Shown piece by piece: positions 28,757-64,000 of a DNA stretch of 64,000 nt. The stretch comes from Nemertoderma westbladi (taxonomy: Eukaryota; Animalia; Xenacoelomorpha), in assembly GCA_032718475.1 (NCBI GenBank), contig JAUCBJ010007243.1, positions 62,001 through 126,000 of the forward strand. Direction: 5' to 3'. A program made the translations under genes and the position numbers. The notes beneath the pieces were generated by a model. That model was not told the origin of the DNA. It saw only the letters and a list, made by a program, of their open reading frames with translations, and searched no databases. Positions within the stretch are counted from its first letter, which is position 1, and each line of letters begins with the position of its first letter.

Positions 28757-28856
28757 ATGGAAACTTCACAAGATTCCGCAGATGGTGATGTCGATGGCTT
28801 TGACAATGATATCGGCCTATCAAATTCAAATACCGGTATTCACATTCTAGAAGAAG
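28757..28856 (+). CDS. Putative first coding exon of NR2C (METSQDSADGDVDGFDNDIGLSNSNTGIHILEE)
   Basis: ATG immediately after an in-frame TGA, open to the donor AAG|GTGGGT in phase 1, compatible with the next exon. No homology support. Confidence 0.4.
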
Positions 28857-29739: not shown

Positions 29740-29964
29740 ATAAAACGATTACAGAGAGTACCGGTAACTTTAGCTTACCTGGAAGCAGCGACAGTCCCAC
29801 CGAGAATGGCGAAGATGCCACCGATGATAACGCCAGTTTATGCGAGGATGCGCAAGGTGACATTGATACAGCAGGCGCGGTCGGCCCTAACCTACCTTAC
29901 AGCATACTAGCTCCAACCCTCAACGCAATGTTCGCTGCTCCCTTCAACACACCCTTTACAGGAA
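29740..29964 (+). CDS. Putative NR2C N-terminal (A/B domain) exon
   Basis: Acceptor ttttgtttag|, open GC-richer frame (DKTITES...PFTG), donor A|GTTAGT. Phase 1 at both ends, joining in frame to the DBD exon. Confidence 0.6.
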
Positions 29965-34471: not shown

Positions 34472-34840
34472 GTTCTCCTCAACTGAATCGCCTACTAACA
34501 GTCTCAGTTCCCGGTGACGTCAACGACGTTGCTGTGACGTCACAGAAAAGCGACGTATCCATGGAGATGGATGGTTTCCAGGTAGAGGGGGCCACAGCCA
34601 CAGATTGCTTTGTATTCGGACGGGATTACCTCTGTTTGGTGTGCGGGGACAAGGCCTCCGGTAGACACTACGGGGTGCTCAGTTGCGAGGGTTGCAAGGG
34701 ATTCTTTAAGCGGAGTATCCGTAAAGGTATTCGTTACGCTTGTCGCGGGCAGCGGGATTGCACCGTCACCAAACACCATCGCAACCGGTGTCAGTTCTGT
34801 CGGCTAAAGAAATGTTTGGATATCGGGATGCGGATAGATG
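34472..34840 (+). CDS. NR2C: NR2C (TR2/TR4-like) DNA-binding domain exon, both C4 zinc fingers
   Basis: [31 protein letters not shown]...[30 protein letters not shown] is the TR2/TR4 signature. Acceptor ttttttttag|, donor G|GTAAGA. Confidence 0.93.
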
Positions 34841-36346: not shown

Positions 36347-36642
36347 CTGTTCAATGCGAACGGAATCTCAACTCTCCGTTTAAGTTGTTTTCTAATGCCT
36401 TCGAGATGTGCAACGATGAGGATTCACCTTGCCCATCCCTAACCAATCACAGTGAGTCTCCTCCTAACGGCGAACAATTTCCTACCTCTCGGGGTCTGCA
36501 GATGTTTACAGACGGCTCCTTCGGTCTATCGCCGTTACCAACCTCGGCGGTACAGAGCAATGCTGCCTGTCCCGGTGATACTCAGAATACCGTGGCGCCG
36601 GAGGTCTACGATACGTTGTACGACCGGCCAATTTCAGAACAG
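36347..36642 (+). CDS. NR2C: NR2C hinge exon
   Basis: Acceptor attcag|; splicing gives GMRIDAVQCER (T-box, compare TR2 DSVQCER). Donor CAG|GTATGT in phase 0. Confidence 0.85.
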
Positions 36643-36815
36643 GTATGTTCATTGTTCAATTCGAGAACAGATATGTTCAATTCTAGAACAGATATGTTCA
36701 ATTCTAGAACATATATGTTCAATTCTAGAACATATATGTTCAATTCTAGAACATATATGTTCAATTCTAGAAAAGGTATGTTCAATTCTTGAAAAGGTAT
36801 GTTTAATTCTAAAAC
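36628..36815 (+). repeat. 21-bp tandem repeat resembling the adjacent exon/intron junction, about 7-8 units
   Basis: Junction ccaatttcagaacag|gtatg versus unit tcaattctagaaca(g/t)atatg. Confidence 0.85.
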
Positions 36816-36822
36816 GGTCAAA

Positions 36823-39143: not shown

Positions 39144-39630
39144 ATGTTTAATTCTAAAACGTCAAATGTTTGTTGTGGATATATTGGCTTGATAAAACCA
39201 GTGTGGAGTTTTCGAAACTGAAATGCTGCAGCAAGTAATAAATAATTAGCTAATTAAAGGCCATTTTTTTAATTAGAGAGCAGCTTATTTTTGACCATTA
39301 CTTCGCGAGTTTTGATCGTAAGGCCTTGATTTTGTGCTCATTCTGTTCAAATTCACTTACAATTTTATGATTTTATATGATATTTTCTCATTCAAAACCG
39401 CTGCGAAAAATACAACCTTTTAAAAATTGTGTTCCAACATTCGAGATTTTGCACTCAAATAGATCAGTAATTATTGCTGTTTTCAAAAATATAGGGGTTT
39501 AAGGGTTTTTAAAATAAGCTGACTGACTGCCTAATTTACAAAATGAATTTTAGTTAGTGTTACTATTTCATTCGGAGTAGTAATAAGTCATTACTTTGGA
39601 CAGCCTATGATTTGCTGCTTTTCCTTTCAG

Positions 39631-39706
39631 GATTCGAATGATGACAGCTCCTCCCGAAGTACCGGTATAAATAGAGCTAACGGCACAGTGCAACCAAATA
39701 ATACCG
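39631..39706 (+). CDS. NR2C: NR2C short hinge exon (DSNDDSSSRSTGINRANGTVQPNNT)
   Basis: Strong acceptor ttttcctttcag| and donor G|GTGAGT. Its phases (0 to 1) are what is needed to link the flanking exons. Confidence 0.75.
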
Positions 39707-39953
39707 GTGAGTTAGTATCAGTATCCACTGGGAGCAGCTGCATTCCATTGCGCTGCAGCCGTGTGTGGTGCTGCATTGTACGCACATCCAGCGTTTTGTG
39801 AGTTCGTTTATAAACACAAAATATTTCAAATACATTTAAGTCGGAACTTAAATATTATGATCATTGCTAACTATATCCTTTAACATTCCAATTATTAACT
39901 ATATTATTAGTTAATTTTATTATCTTATTGTAACTTAATAGTATTACGTTTAG

Positions 39954-40102
39954 ACCGGATACTCAATCAACATCGATACGAGTTCCAACTGACCACCCCC
40001 CAACCGATTCCAGACCCTCTTACCGTTCACTATATCTGCGAGTCTGCGTCCCGGTTACTCTTCCTTACTATTAATTGGGCGAGAACAATTCCCGCATTCC
40101 AG
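39954..40102 (+). CDS. NR2C: NR2C ligand-binding domain exon (helix 3 region)
   Basis: FQLTTPQPIPDPLTVHYICESASRLLFLTINWARTIPAFQ matches the TR2/TR4 motif HYICESASRLLFL...WARSIPAFQ. AG/GT boundaries. Not in the ORF track. Confidence 0.92.
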
Positions 40103-40355
40103 GTGCGTCGAGAATAGGAAGTATTAATCAATCGGTATTTATAATAATTCACTGCCGAAATCCCAGTGTCAGAGTGGATGCAGCGGCTAACCGCTTTCAC
40201 ATAGTGTTTGGGGTGCAGGTTCAAATCGGGGTAGTAATTTCGCACTGTTCCCTAATGCCAGACTCTTTAGAAGTTAGCTAACAGCTGTGGCTTAACAGCC
40301 AAGATAGTGAATCATTCGGTGTTTCGTTTATAACGTTCACATATTATTGTTCTAG

Positions 40356-40641
40356 AACCTGGGTCTGGATTGCAGTAGGGACATGCTACGGGCTACATGG
40401 TGCGAGGCGTTCGTGCTGGGACTAGCTCAGTTCGCCCACACAATGTCACTAGCTACCATGCTCACCGCAATAATGAACCATCTACAGGCCAGTCTGCAGC
40501 AGGGTCGTCTCACAGCCGATCGTGTCCGTCATGTGATGGACCACATCTGGAAACTACAGGAGTTTGTGTCGGCAGTCCTCAGACTCAATGTTTCTGATAG
40601 AGAGTACGCCTATCTACGGGCCATTGTATTGTTCAGTCCAG
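40356..40641 (+). CDS. NR2C: NR2C ligand-binding domain exon; remaining exons lie beyond the window
   Basis: NLGLDCSRDMLRATWCEAFVLGLAQ...IMNHLQ...DRVRHVMDHIWKLQEF...EYAYLRAIVLFSP, then the donor G|GTATGT at 40642. Confidence 0.92.
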
Positions 40642-43600
40642 GTATGTTGTATTGTTCAATCCAGGTATGTTGTATTGGACAGTCCAGGTATGTTGTATTG
40701 TTCAGTCCAGGTATGTTGTATTGTTCAGTCCAGGTATGTTGTATTGTTCAGTCCAGGTATGTTATATTGTTCAGGCCAGGTATGTTGTATTGTTCAGTCC
40801 AGGTATGTTGTATTGTTCAGTCCAGGTATGTTGTATTGTTCAGTCCAGGTATGTTCTATTGGACAGTCCAGGTATGTTCTATTGGACAGTCCAGGTATGT
40901 TGTATTGGACAATCCAGGTATGTTATATTGGACAGTCCAGGTATGTTATATTGGACAGTCCAGGTATGTTCTATTGGACAGTCCAGGTATGTTCTATTGG
41001 ACAGTCCAGGTATGTTGTATTGGACAGTCCAGGTATGTTGTATTGTTCAGTCCAGGTATGTCCTATTGGACAGTCCAGGTATGTTCTATTGGACAGTCCA
41101 AGTATGTTGTATTGTTCAGTCCAGGTATGTTGTATTGTTCAGTCCAGGTATGTTGTATTGTTCAGTCCAGGTATGTTCTATTGGACAGTCCAGGTATGTT
41201 CTATTGGACAGTCCAGGTATGTTGTATTGGACAATCCAGGTATGTTATATTGGACAGTCCAGGTATGTTATATTGGACAGTCCAGGTATGTTCTATTGGA
41301 CAGTCCAGGTATGTTCTATTGGACAGTCCAGGTATGTTCTATTGGACAGTCCAGGTATGTTGTATTGTTCAGTCCAGGTATGTTGTATTGTTCAGTCCAG
41401 GTATGTTCTATTGGACAGTCCAGGTATGTTCTATTGGACAGTCCAGGTATGTTGTATTGTTCAGTCCAGGTATGTTCTATTGGACAGTCCAGGTATGTTG
41501 TATTGTTCAGTCCAGGTATGTTCTATTGGACAGTCCAGGTATGTTGTATTGGACAGTCCAGGTATGTTGTATTGTTCAGTCCAGGTATGTCCTATTGGAC
41601 AGTCCAGGTATGTTCTATTGGACAGTCCAAGTATGTTGTATTGGACAGTCCAGGTATGTTCTATTGGACAGTCCAGGTATGTTGTATTGTTCAGTCCAGG
41701 TATGTTGTATTGTTCAGTCCAGGTATGTTGTATTGTTCAGTCCAGGTATGTTCTATTGGACAGTCCAGGTATGTTCTATTGGACAGTCCAGGTATGTTGT
41801 ATTGTTCAGTCCAGGTATGTTGTATTGTTCAGTCCAGGTATGTTGTATTGTTCAGTCCAGGTATGTTCTATTGGACAGTCCAGGTATGTTCTATTGGACA
41901 GTCCAGGTATGTTGTATTGTTCAGTCCAGGTATGTTGTATTGGACAATCCAGGTATGTTCTATTGGACAGTCCAGGTATGTTCTATTGGACAGTCCAGGT
42001 ATGTCCTATTGGACAGTCCAGGTATGTTCTATTGGACAGTCCAGGTATGTTCTATTGGACAGTCCAGGTATGTCCTATTGGACAGTCCAGGTATGTTCTA
42101 TTGGACAGTCCAGGTATGTTCTATTGGACAGTCCAGGTATGTTGTATTGGACAGTCCAGGTATGTTCTATTGGACAGTCCAGGTATGTTCTATTGGACAG
42201 TCCAGGTATGTCCTATTGGACAGTCCAGGTATGTTCTATTGGACAGTCCAGGTATGTTGTATTGTTCAGTCCAGGTATGTTCTATTGGACAATCCAGGTA
42301 TGTTCTATTGGACAGTCCAGGTATGTTCTATTGGACAGTCCAGGTATGTCCTATTGGACAGTCCAGGTATGTTCTATTGGACAGTCCAGGTATGTTCTAT
42401 TGGACAGTCCAGGTATGTCCTATTGGACAGTCCAGGTATGTTCTATTGGACAGTCCAGGTATGTTCTATTGGACAGTCCAGGTATGTTGTATTGGACAGT
42501 CCAGGTATGTTCTATTGGACAGTCCAGGTATGTTCTATTGGACAGTCCAGGTATGTCCTATTGGACAGTCCAGGTATGTTCTATTGGACAGTCCAGGTAT
42601 GTTGTATTGTTCAGTCCAGGTATGTTCTATTGGACAGTCCAGGTATGTTCTATTGGACAGTCCAGGTATGTTATATTGGACAGTCCAGGTATGTTCTATT
42701 GTTCAGTCCAGGTATGTTGTATTGGACAGTCCAGGTATGTCCTATTGGACAGTCCAGGTATGTTCTATTGGACAGTCCAGGTATGTTCTATTGGACAGTC
42801 CAGGTATGTTCTATTGGACAGTCCAGGTATGTTCTATTGGACAGTCCAGGTATGTTGTATTGGACAGTCCAGGTATGTTCTATTGGACAGTCCAGGTATG
42901 TTCTATTGGACAGTCCAGGTATGTTGTATTGTTCAGTCCAGGTATGTTGTATTGTTCAGTCCAGGTATGTTGTATTGGACAATCCAGGTATGTTCTATTG
43001 GACAGTCCAAGTATGTTGTATTGTTCAGGCCAGGTATGTTCTATTGGACAGTCCAGGTATGTTCTATTGGACAGTCCAGGTATGTTGTATTGGACAGTCC
43101 AGGTATGTCCTATTGGACAGTCCAGGTATGTTCTATTGGACAGTCCAGGTATGTTCTATTGGACAGTCCAGGTATGTTCTATTGGACAGTCCAGGTATGT
43201 TCTATTGGACAGTCCAGGTATGTTCTATTGGACAGTCCAAGTATGTTGTATTGTTCAGGCCAGGTATGTTCTATTGGACAGTCCAGGTATGTTCTATTGG
43301 ACAGTCCAGGTATGTTGTATTGGACAGTCCAGGTATGTCCTATTGGACAGTCCAGGTATGTTGTATTGTTCAGTCCAGGTATGTTCTATTGGACAGTCCA
43401 GGTATGTTCTATTGGACAGTCCAGGTATGTTGTATTGGACAGTCCAGGTATGTTCTATTGGACAGTCCAGGTATGTTCTATTGGACAGTCCAGGTATGTT
43501 CTATTGGACAGTCCAGGTATGTTCTATTGGACAGTCCAGGTATGTTGTATTGGACAGTCCAGGTATGTTCTATTGGACAGTCCAGGTATGTTCTATTGGA

Positions 43601-46600
43601 CAGTCCAGGTATGTTCTATTGGACAGTCCAGGTATGTTGTATTGTTCAGTCCAGGTATGTTCTATTGGACAGTCCAGGTATGTTCTATTGGACAGTCCAG
43701 GTATGTTGTATTGGACAGTCCAGGTATGTTCTATTGGACAGTCCAGGTATGTTCTATTGGACAGTCCAGGTATGTTGTATTGGACAGTCCAGGTATGTTG
43801 TATTGGACAGTCCAGGTATGTTCTATTGGACAGTCCAGGTATGTTCTATTGGACAGTCCAGGTATGTTCTATTGGACAGTCCAGGTATGTTGTATTGGAC
43901 AGTCCAGGTATGTTCTATTGGACAGTCCAGGTATGTTCTATTGGACAGTCCAGGTATGTTCTATTGGACAGTCCAGGTATGTTGTATTGGACAGTCCAGG
44001 TATGTTGTATTGGACAGTCCAGGTATGTTGTATTGGACAGTCCAGGTATGTTCTATTGGACAGTCCAGGTATGTTCTATTGGACAGTCCAGGTATGTTCT
44101 ATTGGACAGTCCAGGTATGTTGTATTGGACAGTCCAGGTATGTTGTATTGGACAGTCCAGGTATGTTCTATTGTTCAGTCCAGGTATGTTCTATTGGACA
44201 GTCCAGGTATGTTATATTGGACAGTCCAGGTATGTTTTATTGGACAGTCCAGGTATGTTCTATTGGACAGTCCAGGTATGTCCTATTGGACAGTCCAGGT
44301 ATGTTCTATTGGACAGTCCAGGTATGTTCTATTGGACAGTCCAGGTATGTTGTATTGGACAGTCCAGGTATGTTGTATTGGACAGTCCAGGTATGTCCTA
44401 TTGGACAGTCCAGGTATGTCCTATTGGACAGTCCAGGTATGTCCTATTGGACAGTCCAGGTATGTTCTATTGGACAGTCCAGGTATGTTCTATTGGACAG
44501 TCCAGGTATGTTCTATTGGACAGTCCAGGTATGTTGTATTGGACAGTCCAGGTATGTCCTATTGGACAGTCCAGGTATGTTCTATTGGACAGTCCAGGTA
44601 TGTTCTATTGGACAGTCCAGGTATGTTGTATTGGACAGTCCAGGTATGTTGTATTGGACAGTCCAGGTATGTCCTATTGGACAGTCCAGGTATGTTCTAT
44701 TGGACAGTCCAGGTATGTTGTATTGGACAGTCTAGGTATGTCCTATTGGACAGTCCAGGTATGTTCTATTGGACAGTCCAGGTATGTTCTATTGGACAGT
44801 CCAGGTATGTTGTATTGGACAGTCCAGGTATGTCCTATTGGACAGTCCAGGTATGTTCTATTGGACAGTCCAGGTATGTTCTATTGGACAGTCCAGGTAT
44901 GTTGTATTGGACAGTCCAGGTATGTTGTATTGGACAGTCCAGGTATGTCCTATTGGACAGTCCAGGTATGTTCTATTGGACAGTCCAGGTATGTTCTATT
45001 GGACAGTCCAGGTATGTTCTATTGTTCAGTCCAGGTATGTCCTATTGGACAGTCCAGGTATGTTGTATTGGACAATCCAGGTATGTTCTATTGGACAGTC
45101 CAAGTATGTTGTATTGTTCAGGCCAGGTATGTTCTATTGGACAGTCCAGGTATGTTCTATTGGACAGTCCAGGTATGTTGTATTGGACAGTCCAGGTATG
45201 TCCTATTGGACAGTCCAGGTATGTTCTATTGGACAGTCCAGGTATGTTCTATTGGACAGTCCAGGTATGTTCTATTGGACAGTCCAGGTATGTTCTATTG
45301 GACAGTCCAGGTATGTTGTATTGGACAGTCCAGGTATGTTCTATTGGACAGTCCAGGTATGTTCTATTGGACAGTCCAGGTATGTTGTATTGTTCAGTCC
45401 AGGTATGTTGTATTGGACAATCCAGGTATGTTCTATTGTTCAGTCCAGGTATGTTCTATTGGACAGTCCAGGTATGTTATATTGGACAGTCCAGGTATGT
45501 TTTATTGGACAGTCCAGGTATGTCCTATTGGACAGTCCAGGTATGTTCTATTGGACAGTCCAGGTATGTTCTATTGGACAGTCCAGGTATGTTCTATTGG
45601 ACAGTCCAGGTATGTTGTATTGGACAGTCCAGGTATGTTGTATTGGACAGTCCAGGTATGTCCTATTGGACAGTCCAGGTATGTTCTATTGGACAGTCCA
45701 GGTATGTTCTATTGGACAGTCCAGGTATGTTCTATTGTTCAGTCCAGGTATGTCCTATTGGACAGTCCAGGTATGTTGTATTGGACAATCCAGGTATGTT
45801 CTATTGGACAGTCCAAGTATGTTGTATTGTTCAGGCCAGGTATGTTCTATTGGACAGTCCAGGTATGTTCTATTGGACAGTCCAGGTATGTTGTATTGGA
45901 CAGTCCAGGTATGTCCTATTGGACAGTCCAGGTATGTTCTATTGGACAGTCCAGGTATGTTCTATTGGACAGTCCAGGTATGTTCTATTGGACAGTCCAG
46001 GTATGTTCTATTGGACAGTCCAGGTATGTTGTATTGGACAGTCCAGGTATGTTCTATTGGACAGTCCAGGTATGTTCTATTGGACAGTCCAGGTATGTTG
46101 TATTGTTCAGTCCAGGTATGTTGTATTGGACAATCCAGGTATGTTCTATTGTTCAGTCCAGGTATGTTCTATTGGACAGTCCAGGTATGTTATATTGGAC
46201 AGTCCAGGTATGTTTTATTGGACAGTCCAGGTATGTTCTATTGGACAGTCCAGGTATGTCCTATTGGACAGTCCAGGTATGTTCTATTGGACAGTCCAGG
46301 TATGTTCTATTGGACAGTCCAGGTATGTTGTATTGGACAGTCCAGGTATGTTGTATTGGACAGTCCAGGTATGTCCTATTGGACAGTCCAGGTATGTCCT
46401 ATTGGACAGTCCAGGTATGTCCTATTGGACAGTCCAGGTATGTTCTATTGGACAGTCCAGGTATGTTCTATTGGACAGTCCAGGTATGTTCTATTGGACA
46501 GTCCAGGTATGTTGTATTGGACAGTCCAGGTATGTCCTATTGGACAGTCCAGGTATGTTCTATTGGACAGTCCAGGTATGTTCTATTGGACAGTCCAGGT

Positions 46601-49600
46601 ATGTTGTATTGGACAGTCCAGGTATGTTGTATTGGACAGTCCAGGTATGTCCTATTGGACAGTCCAGGTATGTACTATTGGACAGTCCAGGTATGTTGTA
46701 TTGGACAGTCCAGGTATGTCCTATTGGACAGTCCAGGTATGTTCTATTGGACAGTCCAGGTATGTTCTATTGGACAGTCCAGGTATGTTGTATTGGACAG
46801 TCCAGGTATGTCCTATTGGACAGTCCAGGTATGTTCTATTGGACAGTCCAGGTATGTTCTATTGGACAGTCCAGGTATGTTGTATTGGACAGTCCAGGTA
46901 TGTTGTATTGGACAGTCCAGGTATGTCCTATTGGACAGTCCAGGTATGTTCTATTGGACAGTCCAGGTATGTTCTATTGGACAGTCCAGGTATGTTCTAT
47001 TGTTCAGTCCAGGTATGTCCTATTGGACAGTCCAGGTATGTTGTATTGGACAATCCAGGTATGTTCTATTGGACAGTCCAAGTATGTTGTATTGTTCAGG
47101 CCAGGTATGTTCTATTGGACAGTCCAGGTATGTTCTATTGGACAGTCCAGGTATGTTGTATTGGACAGTCCAGGTATGTCCTATTGGACAGTCCAGGTAT
47201 GTTCTATTGGACAGTCCAGGTATGTTCTATTGGACAGTCCAGGTATGTTCTATTGGACAGTCCAGGTATGTTCTATTGGACAGTCCAGGTATGTTGTATT
47301 GGACAGTCCAGGTATGTTCTATTGGACAGTCCAGGTATGTTCTATTGGACAGTCCAGGTATGTTGTATTGGACAGTCCAGGTATGTTGTATTGGACAGTC
47401 CAGGTATGTTCTATTGGACAGTCCAGGTAGGTTGTATTGTTCAGTCCAGGTATGTTGTATTGGACAATCCAGGTATGTTCTATTGGACAGTCCAAGTATG
47501 TTGTATTGTTCAGGCCAGGTATGTTCTATTGGACAGTCCAGGTATGTTCTATTGGACAGTCCAGGTATGTTGTATTGGACAGTCCAGGTATGTCCTATTG
47601 GACAGTCCAGGTATGTTCTATTGGACAGTCCAGGTATGTTCTATTGGACAGTCCAGGTATGTTGTATTGTTCAGTCCAGGTATGTCCTATTGGACAGTCC
47701 AGGTATGTTGTATTGGACATCCAGGTATGTTCTATTGGACAGTCCAAGTATGTTGTATTGTTCAGGCCAGGTATGTTCTATTGGACAGTCCAGGTATGTT
47801 CTATTGGACAGTCCAGGTATGTTGTATTGGACAGTCCAGGTATGTCCTATTGGACAGTCCAGGTATGTTCTATTGGACAGTCCAGGTATGTTCTATTGGA
47901 CAGTCCAGGTATGTTCTATTGGACAGTCCAGGTATGTTGTATTGGACAGTCCAGGTATGTTCTATTGGACAGTCCAGGTATGTTCTATTGGACAGTCCAG
48001 GTATGTTGTATTGGACAGTCCAGGTATGTTCTATTGGACAGTCCAGGTATGTTCTATTGGACAGTCCAGGTATGTTGTATTGGACAGTCCAGGTATGTCC
48101 TATTGGACAGTCCAGGTATGTTCTATTGGACAGTCCAGGTATGTTCTATTGGACAGTCCAGGTATGTTGTATTGGACAGTCCAGGTATGTTGTATTGGAC
48201 AGTCCAGGTATGTCCTATTGGACAGTCCAGGTATGTTCTATTGGACAGTCCAGGTATGTTCTATTGGACAGTCCAGGTATGTTGTATTGTTCAGTCCAGG
48301 TATGTCCTATTGGACAGTCCAGGTATGTTGTATTGGACAGTCCAGGTATGTTCTATTGGACAGTCCAAGTATGTTGTATTGTTCAGGCCAGGTATGTTCT
48401 ATTGGACAGTCCAGGTATGTTCTATTGGACAGTCCAGGTATGTTGTATTGGACAGTCCAGGTATGTCCTATTGGACAGTCCAGGTATGTTCTATTGGACA
48501 GTCCAGGTATGTTGTATTGGACAGTCCAGGTATGTCCTATTGGACAGTCCAGGTATGTTCTATTGGACAGTCCAGGTATGTTCTATTGGACAGTCCAGGT
48601 ATGTTGTATTGGACAGTCCAGGTATGTTCTATTGGACAGTCCAGGTATGTTCTATTGGACAGTCCAGGTATGTTGTATTGGACAGTCCAGGTATGTTCTA
48701 TTGGACAGTCCAGGTATGTTCTATTGGACAGTCCAGGTATGTTGTATTGTTCAGTCCAGGTATGTTGTATTGGACAATCCAGGTATGTTCTATTGGACAG
48801 TCCAGGTATGTTCTATTGGACAGTCCAGGTATGTTCTATTGGACAGTCCAGGTATGTTCTATTGGACAGTCCAGGTATGTTCTATTGGACAGTCCAGGTA
48901 TGTTCTATTGGACAGTCCAGGTATGTTGTATTGGACAGTCCAGGTATGTCCTATTGGACAGTCCAGGTATGTTCTATTGGACAGTCCAGGTATGTTCTAT
49001 TGGACAGTCCAGGTATGTTCTATTGGACAGTCCAGGTATGTTCTATTGGACAGTCCAGGTATGTTCTATTGGACAGTCCAGGTATGTTGTATTGTTCAGG
49101 CCAGGTATGTTCTATTGGACAGTCCAGGTATGTTCTATTGGACAGTCCAGGTATGTTGTATTGGACAGTCCAGGTATGTCCTATTGGACAGTCCAGGTAT
49201 GTTCTATTGGACAGTCCAGGTATGTTCTATTGGACAGTCCAGGTATGTTCTATTGGACAGTCCAGGTATGTTGTATTGGACAGTCCAGGTATGTTGTATT
49301 GTTCAGTCCAGGTATGTTGTATTGGACAGTCCAGGTATGTTCTATTGGACAGTCCAGGTATGTTCTATTGGACAGTCCAGGTATGTTCTATTGGACAGTC
49401 CAGGTATGTTCTATTGGACAGTCCAGGTATGTTCTATTGGACAGTCCAGGTATGTTGTATTGTTCAGTCCAGGTATGTTGTATTGTTCAGTCCAGGTATG
49501 TTCTATTGGACAGTCCAGGTATGTTCTATTGGACAGTCCAGGTATGTTGTATTGGACAGTCCAGGTATGTCCTATTGGACAGTCCAGGTATGTTCTATTG

Positions 49601-52600
49601 GACAGTCCAGGTATGTTGTATTGTTCAGTCCAGGTATGTTCTATTGGACAGTCCAGGTATGTTGTATTGTACAGTCCAGGTATGTTGTATTGGTCAGTCC
49701 AGGTATGTTGTATTGTTCAGTCCAGGTATGTTCTATTGGACAGTCCAGGTATGTCCTATTGGACAGTCCAGGTATGTTCTATTGGACAGTCCAAGTATGT
49801 TGTATTGTTCAGTCCAGGTATGTTCTATTGGACAGTCCAGGTATGTTCTATTGGACAGTCCAGGTATGTTCTATTGGACAGTCCAGGTATGTTGTATTGG
49901 ACAGTCCAGGTATGTCCTATTGGACAGTCCAGGTATGTTCTATTGGACAGTCCAAGTATGTTGTATTGTTCAGTCCAGGTATGTTCTATTGGACAGTCCA
50001 GGTATGTTGTATTGTTCAGTCCAGGTATGTTGTATTGGACAGTCCAGGTATGTCCTATTGGACAGTCCAGGTATGTTCTATTGGACAGTCCAGGTATGTT
50101 GTATTGTTCAGTCCAGGTATGTTCTATTGGACAGTCCAGGTATGTTCTATTAGACAGTCCAGGTATGTTGTATTGTTCAGTCCAGGTATGTTCTATTGGA
50201 CAGTCCAGGTATGTTGTATTGTTCAGTCCAGGTATGTTGTATTGGACAGTCCAGGTATGTCCTATTGGACAGTCCAGGTATGTTCTATTGGACAGTCCAA
50301 GTATGTTGTATTGTTCAGTCCAGGTATGTTCTATTGGACAGTCCAGGTATGTTCTATTGGACAGTCCAGGTATGTTGTATTGTTCAGTCCAGGTATGTTG
50401 TATTGTTCAGTCCAGGTATGTTCTATTGGACAGTCCAGGTATGTTCTATTGGACAGTCCAGGTATGTTGTATTGGACAGTCCAGGTATGTTGTATTGTTC
50501 AGTCCAGGTATGTTCTATTGGACAGTCCAGGTATGTTGTATTGGACAGTCCAGGTATGTTCTATTGGACAGTCCAGGTATGTTGTATTGGACAGTCCAGG
50601 TATGTTGTATTGTTCAGTCCAGGTATGTTCTATTGGACAGTCCAGGTATGTTGTATTGGACAGTCCAGGTATGTTCTATTGGACAGTCCAGGTATGTTCT
50701 ATTGGACAGTCCAGGTATGTTGTATTGGACAGTCCAGGTATGTTGTATTGTTCAGTCCAGGTATGTTCTATTGGACAGTCCAGGTATGTTGTATTGGACA
50801 GTCCAGGTATGTTGTATTGGACAGTCCAGGTATGTTGTATTGGACAGTCCAGGTATGTTCTATTGGACAGTCCAGTCAGGTATGTCTATTGGACAGTCCA
50901 GGTATGTTGTATTGGACAGTCCAGGTAGGTTGTATTGTTCAGTCCAGGTATGTTGTATTGTTCAGTCCAGGTATGTTCTATTGGACAGTCCAGGTATGTT
51001 GTATTGGACAGTCCAGGTATGTCCTATTGGACAGTCCAGGTATGTTCTATTGGACAGTCCAGGTATGTTGTATTGGACAGTCCAGGTATGTTCTATTGGA
51101 CAGTCCAGGTATGTTGTATTGTTCAGTCCAGGTATGTTCTATTGGACAGTCCAGGTATGTTGTATTGGACAGTCCAGGTATGTTCTATTGGACAGTCCAG
51201 TTCAGGTATGTCCTATTGGACAGTCCAGGTATGTTGTATTGGACAGTCCAGGTAGGTTGTATTGTTCAGTCCAGGTATGTTGTATTGTTCAGTCCAGGTA
51301 TGTTCTATTGGACAGTCCAGGTATGTTGTATTGGACAGTCCAGGTATGTCCTATTGGACAGTCCAGGTATGTTCTATTGGACAGTCCAGGTATGTTGTAT
51401 TGGACAGTCCAGGTATGTTCTATTGGACAGTCCAGGTATGTTGTATTGGACAGTCCAGGTATGTTGTATTGTTCAGTCCAGGTATGTTCTATTGGACAGT
51501 CCAGGTATGTTCTATTGGACAGTCCAGGTATGTTGTATTGGACAGTCCAGGTATGTTCTATTGGACAGTCCAGGTATGTTGTATTGGACAGTCCAGGTAT
51601 GTTCTATTGGACAGTCCAGGTATGTTCTATTGGACAGTCCAGGTATGTTCTATTGGACAGTCCAGGTATGTTGTATTGGACAGTCCAGGTATGTTCTATT
51701 GGACAGTCCAGTTCAGGTATGTCCTATTGGACAGTCCAGGTATGTTGTATTGTTCAGTCCAGGTATGTTCTATTGTTCAGTCCAGGTATGTTCTATTGGA
51801 CAGTCCAGGTATGTTCTATTGGACAGTCCAGGTATGTTATATTGTTCAGTCCAGGTATGTTCTATTGGACAGTCCAGGTATGTTGTATTGGACAGTCCAG
51901 GTATGTTCTATTGGACAGTCCAGTTCAGGTATGTCCTATTGGACAGTCCAGGTATGTTGTATTGGACAGTCCAGGTAGGTTGTATTGTTCAGTCCAGGTA
52001 TGTTCTATTGGACAGTCCAGGTATGTTGTATTGGACAGTCCAGGTAGGTTGTATTGTTCAGTCCAGGTATGTTGTATTGGACAATCCAGGTATGTTCTAT
52101 TGGACAGTCCAGGTATGTTGTATTGGACAGTCCAGGTAGGTTGTATTGTTCAGTCCAGGTATGTTGTATTGTTCAATCCAGGTATGTTCTATTGGACAGT
52201 CCAGGTAGGTTGTATTGTTCAGTCCAGGTATGTTGTATTGTTCAGTCCAGGTATGTTCTATTGGACAGTCCAGGTATGTTGTATTGGACAGTCCAGGTAT
52301 GTTCTATTGGACAGTCCAGGTATGTTGTATTGGACAGTCCAGGTATGTCCTATTGGACAGTCCAGGTATGTTGTATTGGACAGTCCAGGTATGTCCTATT
52401 GGACAGTCCAGGTATGTTGTATTGTTCAGTCCAGGTATGTTCTATTGGACAGTCCAAGTATGTTGTATTGTTCAGTCCAGGTATGTTGTATTGGACAGTC
52501 CAGGTATGTCCTATTGGACAGTCCAGGTATGTTCTATTGGACAGTCCAGGTATGTTCTATTGTTCAGTCCAGGTATGTTCTATTGGACAGTCCAGGTATG

Positions 52601-55600
52601 TTGTATTGGACAGTCCAAGTATGTTGTATTGTTCAGTCCAGGTATGTTGTATTGGACAGTCCAGGTATGTCCTATTGGACAGTCCAGGTATGTTCTATTG
52701 GACAGTCCAGGTATGTTCTATTGTTCAGTCCAGGTATGTTCTATTGTTCAGTCCAGGTATGTTGTATTGGACAGTCCAGGTATGTCCTATTGGACAGTCC
52801 AGGTATGTCCTATTGGACAGTCCAGGTATGTTATATTGGACAGTCCAGGTATGTTGTATTGTTCAATCCAGGTATGTTGTATTGGACAGTCCAGGTATGT
52901 TCTATTGGACAGTCCAGGTATGTTATATTGGACAGTCCAGGTATGTTCTATTGGACAGTCCAGGTATGTTGTATTGTTCAGTCCAGGTATGTTGTATTGT
53001 TCAGTCCAGGTATGTTGTATTGGACAGTCCAGGTATGTTGTATTGTTCAATCCAGGTATGTTCTATTGGACAGTCCAGGTATGTTGTATTGGACAGTCCA
53101 GGTATGTTGTATTGTTCAGTCCAGGTATGTTATATTGGACAGTCCAGGTATGTTGTATTGGACAGTCCAGGTATGTTGTATTGTTCAGTCCAGGTATGTT
53201 CTATTGGACAGTCCAGGTATGTTGTATTGGACAGTCCAGGTATGTTCTATTGGACAGTCCAGGTATGTTCTATTGGACAGTCCAGGTATGTTATATTGGA
53301 CAGTCCAGGTATGTTCTATTGGACAGTCCAGGTATGTTATATTGGACAGTCCAGGTATGTTCTATTGGACAGTCCAGGTATGTTGTATTGTTCAGTCCAG
53401 GTATGTTGTATTGTTCAGTCCAGGTATGTTGTATTGTTCAGTCCAGGTATGTTGTATTGTTCAGTCCAGGTATGTTCTATTGGACAGTCCAGGTATGTTC
53501 TATTGGACAGTCCAGGTATGTTATATTGGACAGTCCAGGTATGTTCTATTGGACAGTCCAGGTATGTTGTATTGTTCAGTCCAGGTATGTTGTATTGTTC
53601 AGTCCAGGTATGTTCTATTGGACAGTCCAGGTATGTTGTATTGGACAATCCAGGTATGTTGTATTGGACAGTCCAGGTATGTTCTATTGGACAGTCCAGG
53701 TATGTTGTATTGTTCAGTCCAGGTATGTTGTATTGGACAGTCCAGGTAGGTTGTATTGTTCAGTCCAGGTATGTTGTATTGTTCAATCCAGGTATGTTCT
53801 ATTGGACAGTCCAGGTATGTTGTATTGGACAGTCCAGGTATGTTGTATTGGACAGTCCAGGTATGTTCTATTGGACAGTCCAGGTATGTTATATTGTTCA
53901 GTCCAGGTATGTTGTATTGGACAGTCCAGGTATGTTGTATTGGACAGTCCAGGTATGTTGTATTGGACAGTCCAGGTATGTTGTATTGGACAGTCCAGGT
54001 ATGTTCTATTGGACAGTCCAGGTATGTTGTATTGTTCAGTCCAGGTATGTTCTATTGGACAGTCCAGGTATGTTATATTGTTCAGTCCAGGTATGTTGTA
54101 TTGTTCAATCCAGGTATGTTCTATTGGACAGTCCAGGTATGTTGTATTGTTCAGTCCAGGTATGTTATATTGTTCAGTCCAGGTATGTTGTATTGTTCAA
54201 TCCAGGTATGTTCTATTGGACAGTCCAGGTATGTTGTATTGTTCAGTCCAGGTATGTTATATTGTTCAGTCCAGGTATGTTCTATTGGACAGTCCAGGTA
54301 TGTTGTATTGGACAGTCCAGGTATGTTGTATTGGACAGTCCAGGTATGTTGTATTGGACAGTCCAGGTATGTTCTATTGGACAGTCCAGGTATGTTGTAT
54401 TGTTCAGTCCAGGTATGTTATATTGTTCAGTCCAGGTATGTTGTATTGTTCAATCCAGGTATGTTCTATTGGACAGTCCAGGTATGTTGTATTGTTCAGT
54501 CCAGGTATGTTGTATTGTTCAATCCAGGTATGTTCTATTGGACAGTCCAGGTATGTTGTATTGTTCAGTCCAGGTATGTTGTATTGGACAGTCCAGGTAT
54601 GTTGTATTGTTCAGTCCAGGTATGTTGTATTGTTCAGTCCAGGTATGTTCTATTGGACAGTCCAGGTATGTTGTATTGTTCAGTCCAGGTATGTTGTATT
54701 GGACAGTCCAGGTATGTTGTATTGTTCAGTCCAGGTATGTTGTATTGTTCAGTCCAGGTATGTTGTATTGTTCAATCCAGGTATGTTCTATTGGACAGTC
54801 CAGGTATGTTCTATTGGACAGTCCAGGTATGTTGTATTGGACAGTCCAGGTATGTTGTATTGTTCAGTCCAGGTATGTTCTATTGGACAGTCCAGGTATG
54901 TTGTATTGGACAGTCCATGTATGTTGTATTGTTCAATCCAGGTATGTTCTATTGGACAGTCCAGGTATGTTGTATTGTTCAGTCCAGGTATGTTCTATTG
55001 GACAGTCCAGGTATGTTGTATTGGACAGTCCATGTATGTTGTATTGTTCAGTCCAGGTATGTTCTATTGGACAGTCCAGGTATGTTGTATTGGACAGTCC
55101 AGGTATGTTCTATTGGACAGTCCAGGTATGTTCTATTGGACAGTCCAGGTATGTTGTATTGTTCAGTCCAGGTATGTTCTATTGGACAGTCCAGGTATGT
55201 TCTATTGGACAGTCCAGGTATGTTCTATTGGACAGTCCAGGTAGGTTGTATTGGACAGTCCAGGTATGTTATATTGTTCAGTCCAGGTATGTTGTATTGT
55301 TCAGTCCAGGTATGTTGTATTGTTCAGTCCAGGTATGTTCTATTGGACAGTCCAGGTATGTTGTATTGGACAGTCCATGTATGTTGTATTGTTCAGTCCA
55401 GGTATGTTCTATTGGACAGTCCAGGTATGTTGTATTGTTCAGTCCAGGTATGTTCTATTGGACAGTCCAGGTATGTTGTATTGTTCAATCCAGGTATGTT
55501 CTATTGGACAGTCCAGGTATGTTGTATTGTTCAGTCCAGGTATGTTCTATTGGACAGTCCAGGTATGTTGTATTGTTCAGTCCAGGTATGTTCTATTGGA

Positions 55601-58600
55601 CAGTCCAGGTATGTTGTATTGGACAGTCCATGTATGTTGTATTGTTCAATCCAGGTATGTTCTATTGGACAGTCCAGGTATGTTGTATTGTTCAGTCCAG
55701 GTATGTTCTATTGGACAGTCCAGGTATGTTGTATTGGACAGTCCATGTATGTTGTATTGGACAATCCAGGTATGTTGTATTGTTCAGGCCAGGTATGTTG
55801 TATTGTTCAATCCAGGTATGTTCTATTGGACAGTCCAGGTATGTTGTATTGGACAGTCCAGGTATGTTCTATTGGACAGTCCAGGTATGTTGTATTGGAC
55901 AGTCCATGTATGTTGTATTGTTCAGGCCAGGTATGTTGTATTGTTCAATCCAGGTATGTTCTATTGGACAGTCCAGGTATGTTGTATTGGACAGTCCAGG
56001 TATGTTCTATTGGACAGTCCAGGTATGTTGTATTGGACAGTCCATGTATGTTGTATTGTTCAATCCAGGTATGTTCTATTGGACAGTCCAGGTATGTTGT
56101 ATTGTTCAGTCCAGGTATGTTCTATTGGACAGTCCAGGTATGTTGTATTGGACAGTCCAGGTATGTTGTATTGTTCAATCCAGGTATGTTCTATTGGACA
56201 GTCCAGGTATGTTGTATTGTTCAGTCCAGGTATGTTCTATTGGACAGTCCAGGTATGTTGTATTGGACAGTCCATGTATGTTGTATTGTTCAATCCAGGT
56301 ATGTTCTATTGGACAGTCCAGGTATGTTGTATTGGACAGTCCAGGTATGTTCTATTGGACAGTCCAGGTATGTTGTATTGGACAGTCCATGTATGTTGTA
56401 TTGGACAGTCCAGGTATGTTGTATTGGACAGTCCAGGTATGTTGTATTGTTCAATCCAGGTATGTTCTATTGGACAGTCCAGGTATGTTGTATTGGACAG
56501 TCCATGTATGTTGTATTGGACAGTCCAGGTATGTTGTATTGGACAGTCCATGTATGTTCTATTGGACAGTCCAGGTATGTTGTATTGGACAGTCCATGTA
56601 TGTTGTATTGGACAGTCCAGGTATGTTGTATTGGACAGTCCATGTATGTTCTATTGGACAGTCCAGGTATGTTGTATTGGACAATCCATGTATGTTGTAT
56701 TGGACAGTCCAGGTATGTTGTATTGGACAGTCCATGTATGTTGTATTGGACAGTCCAGGTATGTTGTATTGGACAGTCCAGGTATGTTGTATTGTTCAAT
56801 CCAGGTATGTTCTATTGGACAGTCCAGGTATGTTGTATTGGACAGTCCAGGTATGTTGTATTGTTCAATCCAGGTATGTTCTATTGGACAGTCCAGGTAT
56901 GTTGTATTGGACAGTCCAGGTATGTTCTATTGGACAGTCCAGGTATGTTGTATTGGACAGTCCAGGTATGTTGTATTGTTCAATCCAGGTATGTTCTATT
57001 GGACAGTCCAGGTATGTTGTATTGGACAGTCCATGTATGTTGTATTGGACAGTCCAGGTATGTTGTATTGGACAGTCCATGTATGTTCTATTGGACAGTC
57101 CAGGTATGTTGTATTGGACAGTCCATGTATGTTGTATTGGACAGTCCAGGTATGTTGTATTGGACAGTCCATGTATGTTCTATTGGACAGTCCAGGTATG
57201 TTGTATTGGACAGTCCATGTATGTTGTATTGGACAGTCCAGGTATGTTGTATTGGACAGTCCATGTATGTTGTATTGGACAGTCCAGGTATGTTGTATTG
57301 GACAGTCCAGGTATGTTGTATTGTTCAATCCAGGTATGTTCTATTGGACAGTCCAGGTATGTTGTATTGGACAGTCCAGGTATGTTGTATTGTTCAATCC
57401 AGGTATGTTCTATTGTTCAGTCCAGGTATGTTCTATTGGACAGTCCAGGTATGTTGTATTGGACAGTCCATGTATGTTGTATTGTTCAATCCAGGTATGT
57501 TCTATTGGACAGTCCAGGTATGTTGTATTGGACAGTCCAGGTATGTTCTATTGTTCAGTCCAGGTATGTTCTATTGGACAGTCCAGGTATGTTGTATTGG
57601 ACAGTCCAGGTATGTTCTATTGTTCAGTCCAGGTATGTTCTATTGGACAGTCCAGGTATGTTGTATTGGACAGTCCAGGTATGTTCTATTGTTCAGTCCA
57701 GGTATGTTCTATTGGACAGTCCAGGTATGTTGTATTGGACAGTCCATGTATGTTGTATTGTTCAATCCAGGTATGTTCTATTGGACAGTCCAGGTATGTT
57801 GTATTGGACAGTCCAGGTATGTTCTATTGTTCAGTCCAGGTATGTTCTATTGGACAGTCCAGGTATGTTGTATTGGACAGTCCAGGTATGTTCTATTGGA
57901 CAGTCCAGGTATGTTGTATTGTTCAGTCCAGGTATGTTGTATTGGACAGTCCAGGTATGTTCTATTAGACAGTCCAGGTATGTTCTATTGTTCAGTCCAG
58001 GTATGTTCTATTGGACAGTCCAGGTATGTTGTATTGGACAGTCCATGTATGTTGTATTGTTCAATCCAGGTATGTTCTATTGGACAGTCCAGGTATGTTG
58101 TATTGGACAGTCCAGGTATGTTCTATTGTTCAGTCCAGGTATGTTCTATTGGACAGTCCAGGTATGTTGTATTGGACAGTCCAGGTATGTTCTATTGGAC
58201 AGTCCAGGTATGTTGTATTGGACAGTCCAGGTATGTTGTATTGGACAGTCCAGGTATGTTGTATTGGACAGTCCAGGTATGTTCTATTGGACAGTCCAGG
58301 TATGTTGTATTGGACAGTCCAGGTATGTTCTATTAGACAGTCCAGGTATGTTCTATTGTTCAGTCCAGGTATGTTCTATTGGACAGTCCAGGTATGTTGT
58401 ATTGGACAGTCCATGTATGTTGTATTGTTCAATCCAGGTATGTTCTATTGGACAGTCCAGGTATGTTGTATTGGACAGTCCAGGTATGTTCTATTGTTCA
58501 GTCCAGGTATGTTCTATTGGACAGTCCAGGTATGTTGTATTGGACAGTCCAGGTATGTTCTATTGGACAGTCCAGGTATGTTGTATTGTTCAGTCCAGGT

Positions 58601-61600
58601 ATGTTGTATTGGACAGTCCAGGTATGTTCTATTAGACAGTCCAGGTATGTTCTATTGTTCAGTCCAGGTATGTTCTATTGGACAGTCCAGGTATGTTGTA
58701 TTGGACAGTCCATGTATGTTGTATTGTTCAATCCAGGTATGTTCTATTGGACAGTCCAGGTATGTTGTATTGGACAGTCCAGGTATGTTCTATTGTTCAG
58801 TCCAGGTATGTTCTATTGGACAGTCCAAGTATGTTGTATTGTTCAATCCAGGTATGTTCTATTGGACAGTCCAGGTATGTTGTATTGTTCAGTCCAGGTA
58901 TGTTGTATTGTTCAGTCCAGGTATGTTCTATTGGACAGTCCAGGTATGTTGTATTGTTCAATCCAGGTATGTTCTATTGTTCAGTCCAGGTATGTTCTAT
59001 TGGACAGTCCAAGTATGTTGTATTGTTCAATCCAGGTATGTTCTATTGGACAGTCCAGGTATGTTGTATTGTTCAGTCCAGGTATGTTGTATTGTTCAAT
59101 CCAGGTATGTTCTATTGGACAGTCCAGGTATGTTGTATTGTTCAGTCCAGGTATGTTGTATTGTTCAGTCCAGGTATGTTCTATTGGACAGTCCAGGTAT
59201 GTTGTATTGGACAGTCCATGTATGTTGTATTGTTCAATCCAGGTATGTTCTATTGGACAGTCCAGGTATGTTGTATTGGACAGTCCAAGTATGTTGTATT
59301 GTTCAATCCAGGTATGTTCTATTGGACAGTCCAAGTATGTTGTATTGTTCAATCCAGGTATGTTCTATTGGACAGTCCAGGTATGTTGTATTGTTCAATC
59401 CAGGTATGTTCTATTGGACAGTCCAGGTATGTTGTATTGTTCAGTCCAGGTATGTTCTATTGGACAGTCCAGGTATGTTGTATTGGACAGTCCATGTATG
59501 TTGTATTGTTCAATCCAGGTATGTTCTATTGGACAGTCCAGGTATGTTGTATTGTTCAGTCCAGGTATGTTCTATTGGACAGTCCAGGTATGTTGTATTG
59601 GACAGTCCATGTATGTTGTATTGTTCAATCCAGGTATGTTCTATTGGACAGTCCAGGTATGTTGTATTGGACAGTCCAGGTATGTTGTATTGGACAGTCC
59701 AGGTATGTTCTATTGGACAGTCCAAGTATGTTGTATTGTTCAATCCAGGTATGTTCTATTGGACAGTCCAGGTATGTTGTATTGTTCAGTCCAGGTATGT
59801 TGTATTGGACAGTCCAGGTATGTTGTATTGTTCAGTCCAGGTATGTTGTATTGGACAATCCAGGTATGTTGTATTGTTCAGTCCAGGTATGTTGTATTGG
59901 ACAGTCCATGTATGTTGTATTGTTCAATCCAGGTATGTTCTATTGGACAGTCCAAGTATGTTGTATTGTTCAATCCAGGTATGTTCTATTGGACAGTCCA
60001 GGTATGTTGTATTGTTCAATCCAGGTATGTTCTATTGGACAGTCCAAGTATGTTGTATTGTTCAATCCAGGTATGTTCTATTGGACAGTCCAGGTATGTT
60101 GTATTGTTCAATCCAGGTATGTTCTATTGGACAGTCCAGGTATGTTGTATTGTTCAGTCCAGGTATGTTGTATTGGACAGTCCATGTATGTTGTATTGTT
60201 CAATCCAGGTATGTTCTATTGGACAGTCCAAGTATGTTGTATTGTTCAATCCAGGTATGTTCTATTGGACAGTCCAGGTATGTTGTATTGTTCAATCCAG
60301 GTATGTTCTATTGGACAGTCCAGGTATGTTGTATTGTTCAGTCCAGGTATGTTCTATTGGACAGTCCAGGTATGTTGTATTGGACAGTCCAGGTATGTTG
60401 TATTGTTCAATCCAGGTATGTTCTATTGGACAGTCCAGGTATGTTGTATTGTTCAGTCCAGGTATGTTCTATTGGACAGTCCAGGTATGTTGTATTGGAC
60501 AGTCCATGTATGTTGTATTGTTCAATCCAGGTATGTTCTATTGGACAGTCCAGGTATGTTGTATTGTTCAGTCCAGGTATGTTCTATTGGACAGTCCAGG
60601 TATGTTGTATTGGACAGTCCATGTATGTTGTATTGTTCAATCCAGGTATGTTCTATTGGACAGTCCAGGTATGTTGTATTGGACAGTCCAGGTATGTTCT
60701 ATTGGACAGTCCAGGTATGTTGTATTGGACAGTCCATGTATGTTGTATTGTTCAATCCAGGTATGTTCTATTGGACAGTCCAGGTATGTTGTATTGTTCA
60801 GTCCAGGTATGTTCTATTGGACAGTCCAGGTATGTTGTATTGGACAGTCCAGGTATGTTGTATTGGACAATCCAGGTATGTTCTATTGGACAGTCCATGT
60901 ATGTTGTATTGTTCAATCCAGGTATGTTCTATTGGACAGTCCAGGTATGTTGTATTGGACAGTCCAGGTATGTTCTATTGGACAGTCCAGGTATGTTGTA
61001 TTGGACAGTCCATGTATGTTGTATTGTTCAATCCAGGTATGTTCTATTGGACAGTCCAGGTATGTTGTATTGTTCAGTCCAGGTATGTTCTATTGGACAG
61101 TCCAGGTATGTTGTATTGGACAGTCCAGGTATGTTGTATTGGACAATCCAGGTATGTTCTATTGGACAGTCCATGTATGTTGTATTGTTCAATCCAGGTA
61201 TGTTCTATTGGACAGTCCAGGTATGTTGTATTGGACAGTCCAGGTATGTTCTATTGGACAGTCCAGGTATGTTGTATTGGACAGTCCATGTATGTTGTAT
61301 TGTTCAATCCAGGTATGTTCTATTGGACAGTCCAGGTATGTTGTATTGTTCAGTCCAGGTATGTTCTATTGGACAGTCCAGGTATGTTGTATTGTTCAAT
61401 CCAGGTATGTTCTATTGGACAGTCCAGGTATGTTGTATTGGACAGTCCAGGTATGTTCTATTGGACAGTCCAGGTATGTTGTATTGGACAGTCCATGTAT
61501 GTTGTATTGTTCAATCCAGGTATGTTCTATTGGACAGTCCAGGTATGTTGTATTGGACAGTCCATGTATGTTGTATTGTTCAATCCAGGTATGTTCTATT

Positions 61601-64000
61601 GGACAGTCCAGGTATGTTGTATTGTTCAGTCCAGGTATGTTCTATTGGACAGTCCAGGTATGTTGTATTGGACAGTCCAGGTATGTTGTATTGGACAATC
61701 CAGGTATGTTCTATTGGACAGTCCATGTATGTTGTATTGGACAGTCCAGGTATGTTCTATTGGACAGTCCAGGTATGTTGTATTGGACAGTCCAGGTATG
61801 TTCTATTGGACAGTCCAGGTATGTTGTATTGGACAGTCCATGTATGTTGTATTGTTCAATCCAGGTATGTTCTATTGGACAGTCCAGGTATGTTGTATTG
61901 TTCAGTCCAGGTATGTTCTATTGGACAGTCCAGGTATGTTGTATTGGACAGTCCAGGTATGTTGTATTGGACAATCCAGGTATGTTCTATTGGACAGTCC
62001 ATGTATGTTGTATTGTTCAATCCAGGTATGTTCTATTGGACAGTCCAGGTATGTTGTATTGGACAGTCCAGGTATGTTCTATTGGACAGTCCAGGTATGT
62101 TGTATTGGACAGTCCATGTATGTTGTATTGTTCAATCCAGGTATGTTCTATTGGACAGTCCAGGTATGTTGTATTGTTCAGTCCAGGTATGTTCTATTGG
62201 ACAGTCCAGGTATGTTGTATTGTTCAGTCCAGGTATGTTCTATTGGACAGTCCAGGTATGTTGTATTGGACAGTCCATGTATGTTGTATTGTTCAATCCA
62301 GGTATGTTCTATTGGACAGTCCAGGTATGTTGTATTGGACAGTCCAGGTATGTTCTATTGGACAGTCCAGGTATGTTGTATTGGACAGTCCATGTATGTT
62401 GTATTGTTCAATCCAGGTATGTTCTATTGGACAGTCCAGGTATGTTGTATTGTTCAGTCCAGGTATGTTCTATTGGACAGTCCAGGTATGTTGTATTGGA
62501 CAGTCCATGTATGTTGTATTGTTCAATCCAGGTATGTTCTATTGGACAGTCCAGGTATGTTGTATTGGACAGTCCAGGTATGTTCTATTGTTCAATCCAG
62601 GTATGTTCTATTGGACAGTCCAGGTATGTTGTATTGTTCAGTCCAGGTATGTTGTATTGGACAGTCCAGGTATGTTGTATTGTTCAGTCCAGGTATGTTG
62701 TATTGTTCAGTCCAGGTATGTTGTATTGTTCAATCCAGGTATGTTCTATTGGACAGTCCAGGTATGTTGTATTGTTCAATCCAGGTATGTTGTATTGTTC
62801 AGGCCAGGTATGTTGTATTGTTCAATCCAGGTATGTTCTATTGGACAGTCCAGGTATGTTGTATTGTTCAGTCCAGGTATGTTCTATTGGACAGTCCAGG
62901 TATGTTGTATTGTTCAGTCCAGGTATGTTGTATTGGACAGTCCAGGTATGTTGTATTGTTCAGTCCAGGTATGTTGTATTGTTCAGTCCAGGTATGTTGT
63001 ATTGTTCAATCCAGGTATGTTCTATTGGACAGTCCAGGTATGTTGTATTGTTCAGTCCAGGTATGTTGTATTGGACAGTCCAGGTATGTTGTATTGTTCA
63101 GTCCAGGTATGTTGTATTGTTCAGTCCAGGTATGTTGTATTGTTCAATCCAGGTATGTTCTATTGGACAGTCCAGGTATGTTGTATTGTTCAATCCAGGT
63201 ATGTTGTATTGGACAGTCCAGGTATGTTCTATTGGACAGTCCAGGTATGTTGTATTGGACAGTCCAGGTATGTTCTATTGGACAGTCCAGGTATGTTCTA
63301 TTGGACAGTCCAGGTATGTTGTATTGTTCAGTCCAGGTATGTTGTATTGTTCAGTCCAGGTATGTTGTATTGTTCAATCCAGGTATGTTCTATTGGACAG
63401 TCCAGGTATGTTGTATTGTTCAGTCCAGGTATGTTGTATTGGACAGTCCAGGTATGTTGTATTGTTCAGTCCAGGTATGTTGTATTGTTCAGTCCAGGTA
63501 TGTTGTATTGTTCAATCCAGGTATGTTCTATTGGACAGTCCAGGTATGTTGTATTGTTCAATCCAGGTATGTTGTATTGGACAGTCCAGGTATGTTCTAT
63601 TGGACAGTCCAGGTATGTTCTATTGGACAGTCCAGGTATGTTGTATTGTTCAGGCCAGGTATGTTGTATTGTTCAATCCAGGTATGTTCTATTGGACAGT
63701 CCAGGTATGTTGTATTGTTCAGTCCAGGTATGTTCTATTGGACAGTCCAGGTATGTTGTATTGTTCAGGCCAGGTATGTTCTATTGGACAGTCCAGGTAT
63801 GTTGTATTGTTCAGTCCAGGTATGTTGTATTGGACAGTCCAGGTATGTTGTATTGTTCAGTCCAGGTATGTTGTATTGGACAGTCCAGGTATGTTGTATT
63901 GGACAGTCCAGGTATGTTGTATTGGACAGTCCAGGTATGTTCTATTGTTCAATCCAGGTATGTTCTATTGGACAGTCCAGGTATGTTGTATTGGACAGTC
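40624..64000 (+). repeat. 23-bp tandem array, about 1000 units, running off the window end; unit derived from the exon/intron junction
   Basis: Consensus tt[g/c]tattg[tt/ga]cagtccaggtatg. The first unit, 40624-40646, spans the splice donor. 23377 bp / 23 gives about 1016 units. Confidence 0.97.

Follow-up and report, generated by a model that had tools for sequence, protein, structure and literature searches.

Which 5' splice site does a gene use when the exon-intron junction carrying it has been copied about a thousand times into the intron behind it? This question is raised by a 64,000-nt stretch of DNA from the xenacoelomorph Nemertoderma westbladi (assembly GCA_032718475.1, contig JAUCBJ010007243.1, positions 62,001 to 126,000 of the forward strand), here called the window. 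In it, an exon of a predicted nuclear receptor gene of the NR2C (TR2/TR4) type runs into a 23-bp tandem array. We propose, with a probability of about 0.8, that more than 1,000 copies of the junction lie in an intron that is spliced from its first donor. The array would have started with one 23-bp duplication, grown in a near-neutral manner and been tolerated as the most upstream donor wins.

The array starts at the exon-intron junction

The array and its first unit are (positions in the window):

40624..64000, + strand: junction-derived 23-bp tandem array ("mirage"), at least 1,015 units, continuing past the window (Tandem Repeats Finder, unit parsing, short-read contigs)
40624..40646, + strand: unit 1, the seed, with the last 18 exon nt and the first 5 intron nt; authentic donor after 40641 (sequence; spliced contigs leave at 40641)

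Tandem Repeats Finder (TRF) reported a period of 23 with 1015.4 copies spanning 40624-63993, and unit parsing found 1,015 GT donor motifs in space for ~1,016 units. Note that the array runs past the end of the window, so that the copy number is a lower bound. An earlier note, made from the sequence alone, had stated that the array begins at the junction without a spacer, and unit 1 indeed joins 18 exon nt directly to 5 intron nt. Its exon part is in frame and reads V-L-F-S-P followed by a phase-1 G. Exact copies of unit 1 account for 145 units (unit 1 included), and no occurrence of this 23-mer was found within the window outside the array. The donor 9-mer CAG|GTATGT is present in 935 units, the real donor included, leaving 934 decoys with the identical 9-mer; this agrees with the approximately one thousand donors, many identical to the real one, that had been claimed. 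GT is kept in all ~1,015 units, and the G at donor position -1 is lost in 70.

The commonest unit occurs in 379 copies and differs from the exon at 3 positions. Exon-identical units had been described as dense at the array start. This is the case for the first 50 units, 19 of which match the exon compared to a mean of 7.1 per 50, but the density is not peculiar to the start, as 50-unit blocks deep inside the array again reach 17 and 15. The frame of the exon stays open through 178 repeat units, creating a stop-to-stop open reading frame of 1,459 amino acids (40356-44735). This is a trap for annotators, since gene finders can fuse the repeat to the protein.

Transcripts leave the exon at the first donor

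The RNA evidence consists of one contig each from runs X3 and X5, which come from two separate studies; the transcript contigs were aligned on 39600-40646. The run listing comprises 6 runs, none with RNA on record; the absence of GT..AG introns from the contigs of X3 and X5 led us to treat these two runs as transcript assemblies. The junction at the array start is not covered by run X4. In both contigs (depth 4,907 for X3 and 77 for X5), three exons are joined by GT..AG and two introns are skipped. Both depart at 40641, the first donor, into a sequence reading D-H-P-G-L, which shows that the gene is live and that the array is intronic. The mRNA contigs lack unit positions 19-23. The next exon had been predicted to carry D-H/x-P-G-L-like residues, as it does, and the concern that no spliced NR2C transcript might cross the array, which would point to a pseudogene, is answered by the transcripts of the two studies. 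No contig with a decoy junction was present among the 2 (X3) and 24 (X5) contigs on the exon plus three units.

Sorted by their effect on the frame, 59 of the 934 decoys would insert residues in frame, 114 would cause a frameshift and 761 are located downstream of the first in-frame stop (44733); the 114 frame-shifting decoys are thus part of the 173 that precede this stop. With 114 decoys shifting the frame and 761 beyond the stop, most leak would be degraded. Most decoy use would probably be punished in this way, by frameshift or in-frame stop, and nonsense-mediated decay would hide much of the leak. The choice of the first donor may itself result from 5'-to-3' scanning or from exon definition, as in human F7.

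RNA structure was tested as the cause of first-donor choice and found no support: the real donor is predicted to be no more open than the decoys. In five array stretches, the predicted chance of the donor 9-mer being unpaired was 0.003 for the real donor; it was 0.004 for decoys that have GA at unit positions 9-10 (n=151), compared to 0.013 for those with TT (n=101). Predicted folding was stronger for a GA-rich stretch (z -4.7) than for the first ten units (z -2.5), with shuffle controls of a kind that favour any tandem repeat.

The array is present in short-read DNA and likely occupies one locus

The short-read DNA evidence comprises contigs of runs X1 (sample S1) and X2 (sample S2) on the exon plus three units. 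Unique contigs ended at 40652 (X1) and 40653 (X2), where 31-mers become pure repeat; k=31 for the contig graphs is an assumption that agrees with these end positions. X1 contained 1,060 contigs with a summed depth of up to 217,871, compared to 25.3, and X2 contained 48 contigs with up to 79,048, compared to 18. Depth summed over contigs does not give a copy number, and the depth floors of X1 and X2 differ ~1.8-fold: calibration on the window's own array put the floor at 830-1,064 units in X2 and at 1,628-1,883 in X1. An assembly artefact, which the earlier note had considered, is unlikely given the presence of the array in short-read contigs of two samples at thousands-fold summed depth. Assigning individual X2 contigs to unit types from their numbers of differences gave ambiguous results (ratios 0.1 to 19), and no length estimate was taken from them.

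The evidence on entry into and exit from the array comes from loose ends among the contig pieces listed. Among these, a single long 3' loose end, identical in X1 and X2, begins with a decayed unit and leads into at least 255 nt of other sequence, and in neither run does any long sequence other than the exon lead into the repeat from the 5' side. Because there is one entry and one exit, one locus likely carries the array, which speaks against the occurrence at many unrelated loci that the earlier note had named as a refutation.

The units derive from the exon and evolve locally

One unit type is confined to the first 600 units and another to the units after 600. The longest exact duplicated run measures 29 units, compared to at most 10 in 20 shuffles. 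These regional variants and duplicated blocks indicate local concerted evolution among the units. The major variants would translate as L-L-D-S-P or V-L-D-S-P. Because they break the conserved V-L-F-S-P, the repeat variants are derived and the direction is from exon to repeat, in line with the earlier argument that the repeat derives from the gene and not the reverse. That the exon-intron junction seeded the satellite is likewise supported by unit identity, counts and the spliced boundary.

The commonest change is TT to GA at unit positions 9-10, found in 741 of 1,015 units, with only 1-2 units of each kind of single intermediate. The change perfects a 5-bp inverted repeat, which would be achieved by 4 of 198 adjacent double changes. 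Template switching is a mechanism that generates such changes. It is the likely origin of TT to GA, which may have arisen in one such event because the inverted repeat is perfected. All 70 changes at donor position -1 fall on the palindromic unit type. Selection for an intact GT is not claimed here, as the independent mutations are too few; with few distinct mutations in existence, the intact GT needs no selection.

We suggest the following course of events. The array likely began with one 23-bp duplication of the junction and likely grew in a near-neutral manner through slippage and unequal exchange. Block duplication and local homogenisation, to which the regional variants and duplicated runs point, would have shaped it further, and purifying selection on the protein would hold unit 1 at V-L-F-S-P while the copies drift.

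A second junction repeat in the same gene

36630..36804, + strand: second small mirage, a 21-nt unit (13 exon and 8 intron nt), a 7-nt spacer, then 7 copies (TRF, unit parsing)

The copies are identical to their own junction at 16-18 of 21 positions, and the seeding donor at 36642 is also supported by the RNA contigs. GT is lost (changed to AT) in 5 of the 7 copies, with the last two keeping it. Where the donor used to be, three copies now carry a perfect 14-bp palindrome, which took two steps to arise. Derived changes tend to perfect short palindromes in this repeat and in the large array alike (36700-36762; 40670 onward). Of the 7 donors of the NR2C gene, 2 have junction copies, and of its 6 acceptors none has. 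For at least one of the 6 donors not chosen beforehand, P is ~0.08 (20 of 1,500 random positions resemble the array start). This suggests a possible genome-wide tendency to junction-derived repeats.

The host gene and its surroundings

The exons of the host gene up to the array are:

28757..28856, + strand: predicted NR2C first coding exon, ATG at 28757 (splice signals and open frame only)
29740..29964, + strand: predicted NR2C exon 2 (splice signals and open frame only)
34472..34840, + strand: NR2C DNA-binding-domain exon (tblastn, 70-71% identity; boundaries predicted, open frame)
36347..36642, + strand: NR2C hinge exon whose 3' end seeds the second junction repeat (3' end from the 5' loose end of the X3 and X5 contigs; 5' end predicted, open frame)
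39631..39706, + strand: NR2C hinge exon (spliced contigs)
39954..40102, + strand: NR2C exon, start of the ligand-binding domain (tblastn; GT..AG joints in contigs)
40356..40641, + strand: NR2C ligand-binding-domain exon ending in A-I-V-L-F-S-P plus a phase-1 G (both ends from spliced contigs)

Together these seven exons (28757-40641) join to 1,501 nt with 0 stops, corresponding to 500 codons up to the array. Matches by tblastn cover 34630-34842 in the DNA-binding exon and 39959-40105 in the further ligand-binding exon. The exon that seeds the array contains a ligand-binding domain (PF00104, E 6e-10), and its closest human protein is NR2C2/TR4 (E 3e-32, compared to 1e-9 for COUP-TFII). Judged by homology, the gene is NR2C (TR2/TR4), its predicted DNA-binding and ligand-binding domains both being closest to NR2C.

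Identity of this exon to its homologues is 56-63% (best 120 of 603 matches). D-H-P-G follows in 104 of the 120 homologues carrying the I-V/I-L-F-S-P motif. At the intron site, seven reptile and bat protein models instead read F-S-P-G-..., which suggests run-through of the same phase-1 intron, so that the intron may be older than the array.

Several other features of the window were noted. Within the NR2C gene, an inverted duplication of ~120 bp lies at ~34935-35360 in the intron after the DNA-binding exon (by eye), and run X4 shows a second haplotype across 39764-40209 that differs by 6 substitutions and 1 inserted base, none of them in an exon. A dispersed repeat with the look of a retroelement fragment has three copies by eye (~50-600, 24150-24830 and 36840-37370), one of them in opposite orientation. 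No TRF array was found in the window before 10441. Two decayed arrays of one 10-bp unit (11388-12690 and 16285-17492) lie ~4 kb apart, with a 62-bp array at 14130-14645 between them. On the minus strand, an ADAM10-like gene at ~3430-7190 has very long coding exons; its catalytic domain is 53-57% identical to hemichordate and vertebrate ADAM10 (24 matches). No lancelet protein was among the matches listed for the NR2C exon or the ADAM10 domain, and neither list includes a close relative of the host animal.

Comparison with known junction repeats

The array belongs to the class of mirages, or exon-intron-boundary variable number tandem repeats (VNTRs): the edge unit spans the real boundary, the splice signal is reiterated in the intron and mRNA is made from the most upstream donor. 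The human ABCA7 intron 18 VNTR has a 25-bp unit with a donor, in up to ~427-440 copies and 10.7 kb (PMC5954066, PMC13747324). Like the present array, it repeats a short donor-containing unit hundreds of times from the exon edge. In contrast to ABCA7, the array described here has at least 1,015 copies over 23.4 kb, with 18 exon nt and an intact 9-mer donor per unit. Moreover, ABCA7 uses the unit-2 donor at a low level, whereas here donor 1 alone was seen in the contigs.

In the 37-bp VNTR of human F7 intron 7, the downstream identical donors are functional and remain unused while the most upstream one is intact (PMC1557585). F7, 6-16, CBS, LMNB2 and PDGF share with the present array a first unit that spans the boundary and a reiterated donor, and F7, LMNB2 and PDGF also share use of the most upstream donor (PMC1557585). 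The 6-16 and CBS minisatellites also use two proximal decoys (PMC1557585). The repeats of F7, 6-16, CBS intron 13, LMNB2 and PDGF have 5 to 26 sites, compared to ~1,000 here (PMC1557585).

Lancelet mirages have been described in Adh3, the globins BflGb6 and BflGb9, troponin C and PGBD5 (PMC3087553, PMC3902484). They share with the Nemertoderma repeats the tandem duplication of boundaries, the presence of several per genome, undisturbed splicing and edge units that escape homogenisation; the globin and PGBD5 mirages have 2-7 copies, in contrast to at least 1,015 here. Repeats at exon-intron boundaries are also known from duplicated human genes (PMC2812944). In the giant introns of Drosophila Y genes, a transcribed intron likewise consists largely of tandem satellite DNA; these introns reach megabases and, in the accessible part of that report, are not described as splice-junction copies (PMC12965833). 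No junction repeat near 1,000 copies was found in the literature, a search that did not cover subscription papers.

Alternative explanations

Several points weigh against the explanation proposed above. Proximal decoys are used in human 6-16, CBS and ABCA7 (PMC1557585, PMC5954066, PMC13747324), and rare decoy use may escape notice here, since contigs drop rare variants. The X3 contig breaks off 22 nt inside the next exon, at the point where a 31-mer graph would merge in junctions made by the most frequent type of decoy (651 of 1,014 decoys, with an 8-nt end the same as the exon); this break was spotted after the fact, and a single-nucleotide polymorphism or an error explains it equally well. 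With stricter length cut-offs, the calibration of array length gave unstable figures, up to 200-fold larger. X1 and X2 both carry a flag that marks them as possibly the origin of the present DNA. Finally, the near-neutral character of the growth, which we consider likely, is putative.

The array might instead be in use, with stepwise recursive splicing or leak to distal decoys along a ladder of ~1,000 AG|GT sites, so that satellite length would set or tune NR2C output, and with palindrome-perfecting template switches driving array evolution. Recursive splice sites have the consensus AG|GT after a pyrimidine-rich lead, and each unit offers just this. The retention of GT in all ~1,015 units and of the full 9-mer in 935 would fit such a role, as would the X3 break at +22 nt, and VNTR length in ABCA7 affects human splicing. 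However, the 2 (X3) and 24 (X5) contigs include no decoy junction, the intact GT needs no selection and 70 units are without the -1 G, and no branch-point-like motif was seen by eye in the common units. We therefore regard use of the array, and the accompanying role of template switching, as unlikely.

The remaining alternatives concern the origin and reality of the array. It could be the intron itself, newly formed when an exonic AG|GT was duplicated in tandem (Rogers model), a route proposed for mirages and for human internal tandem repeats (PMC3087553; PMC2812944) and one for which every unit carries the AG|GT. This is very improbable: unit positions 19-23 are missing from the mRNA, the array exits into at least 255 nt of other sequence, and the seven reptile and bat models reading F-S-P-G suggest, indirectly, an old intron position. 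Just as improbable is a dispersed satellite or mobile repeat that landed here and matches the exon end by chance. The 1,113 contig pieces beyond those listed leave room for further copies, whereas the exon part agrees with conserved codons at 18 of 18 nt, the conserved F is lost in the major variants, and the loose ends of the 1,060 and 48 contigs show one entry and one exit. Least probable of all, the array could be an assembly artefact, or could have broken a gene that is now dead. Assembly is difficult for very long repeats, and the far array end is outside the window; against this, the short-read floor is near or above the assembled 1,016 units in two samples, the unit variants are regionally ordered, and spliced transcripts cross the array in two studies. 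An intron that carries over 1,000 copies of its own junction and is spliced from the first donor thus remains our preferred explanation.

Significance

The class of repeat is already known; what is new here is its size, over twice that of the largest published case found (~440 copies, ABCA7). The array is a natural extreme test of 5' splice site choice, in which 934 identical competitors are spread over 23 kb. The share of junction reads could tell scanning on a first-come basis apart from a choice made by strength or at random, and could reveal recursive splicing.

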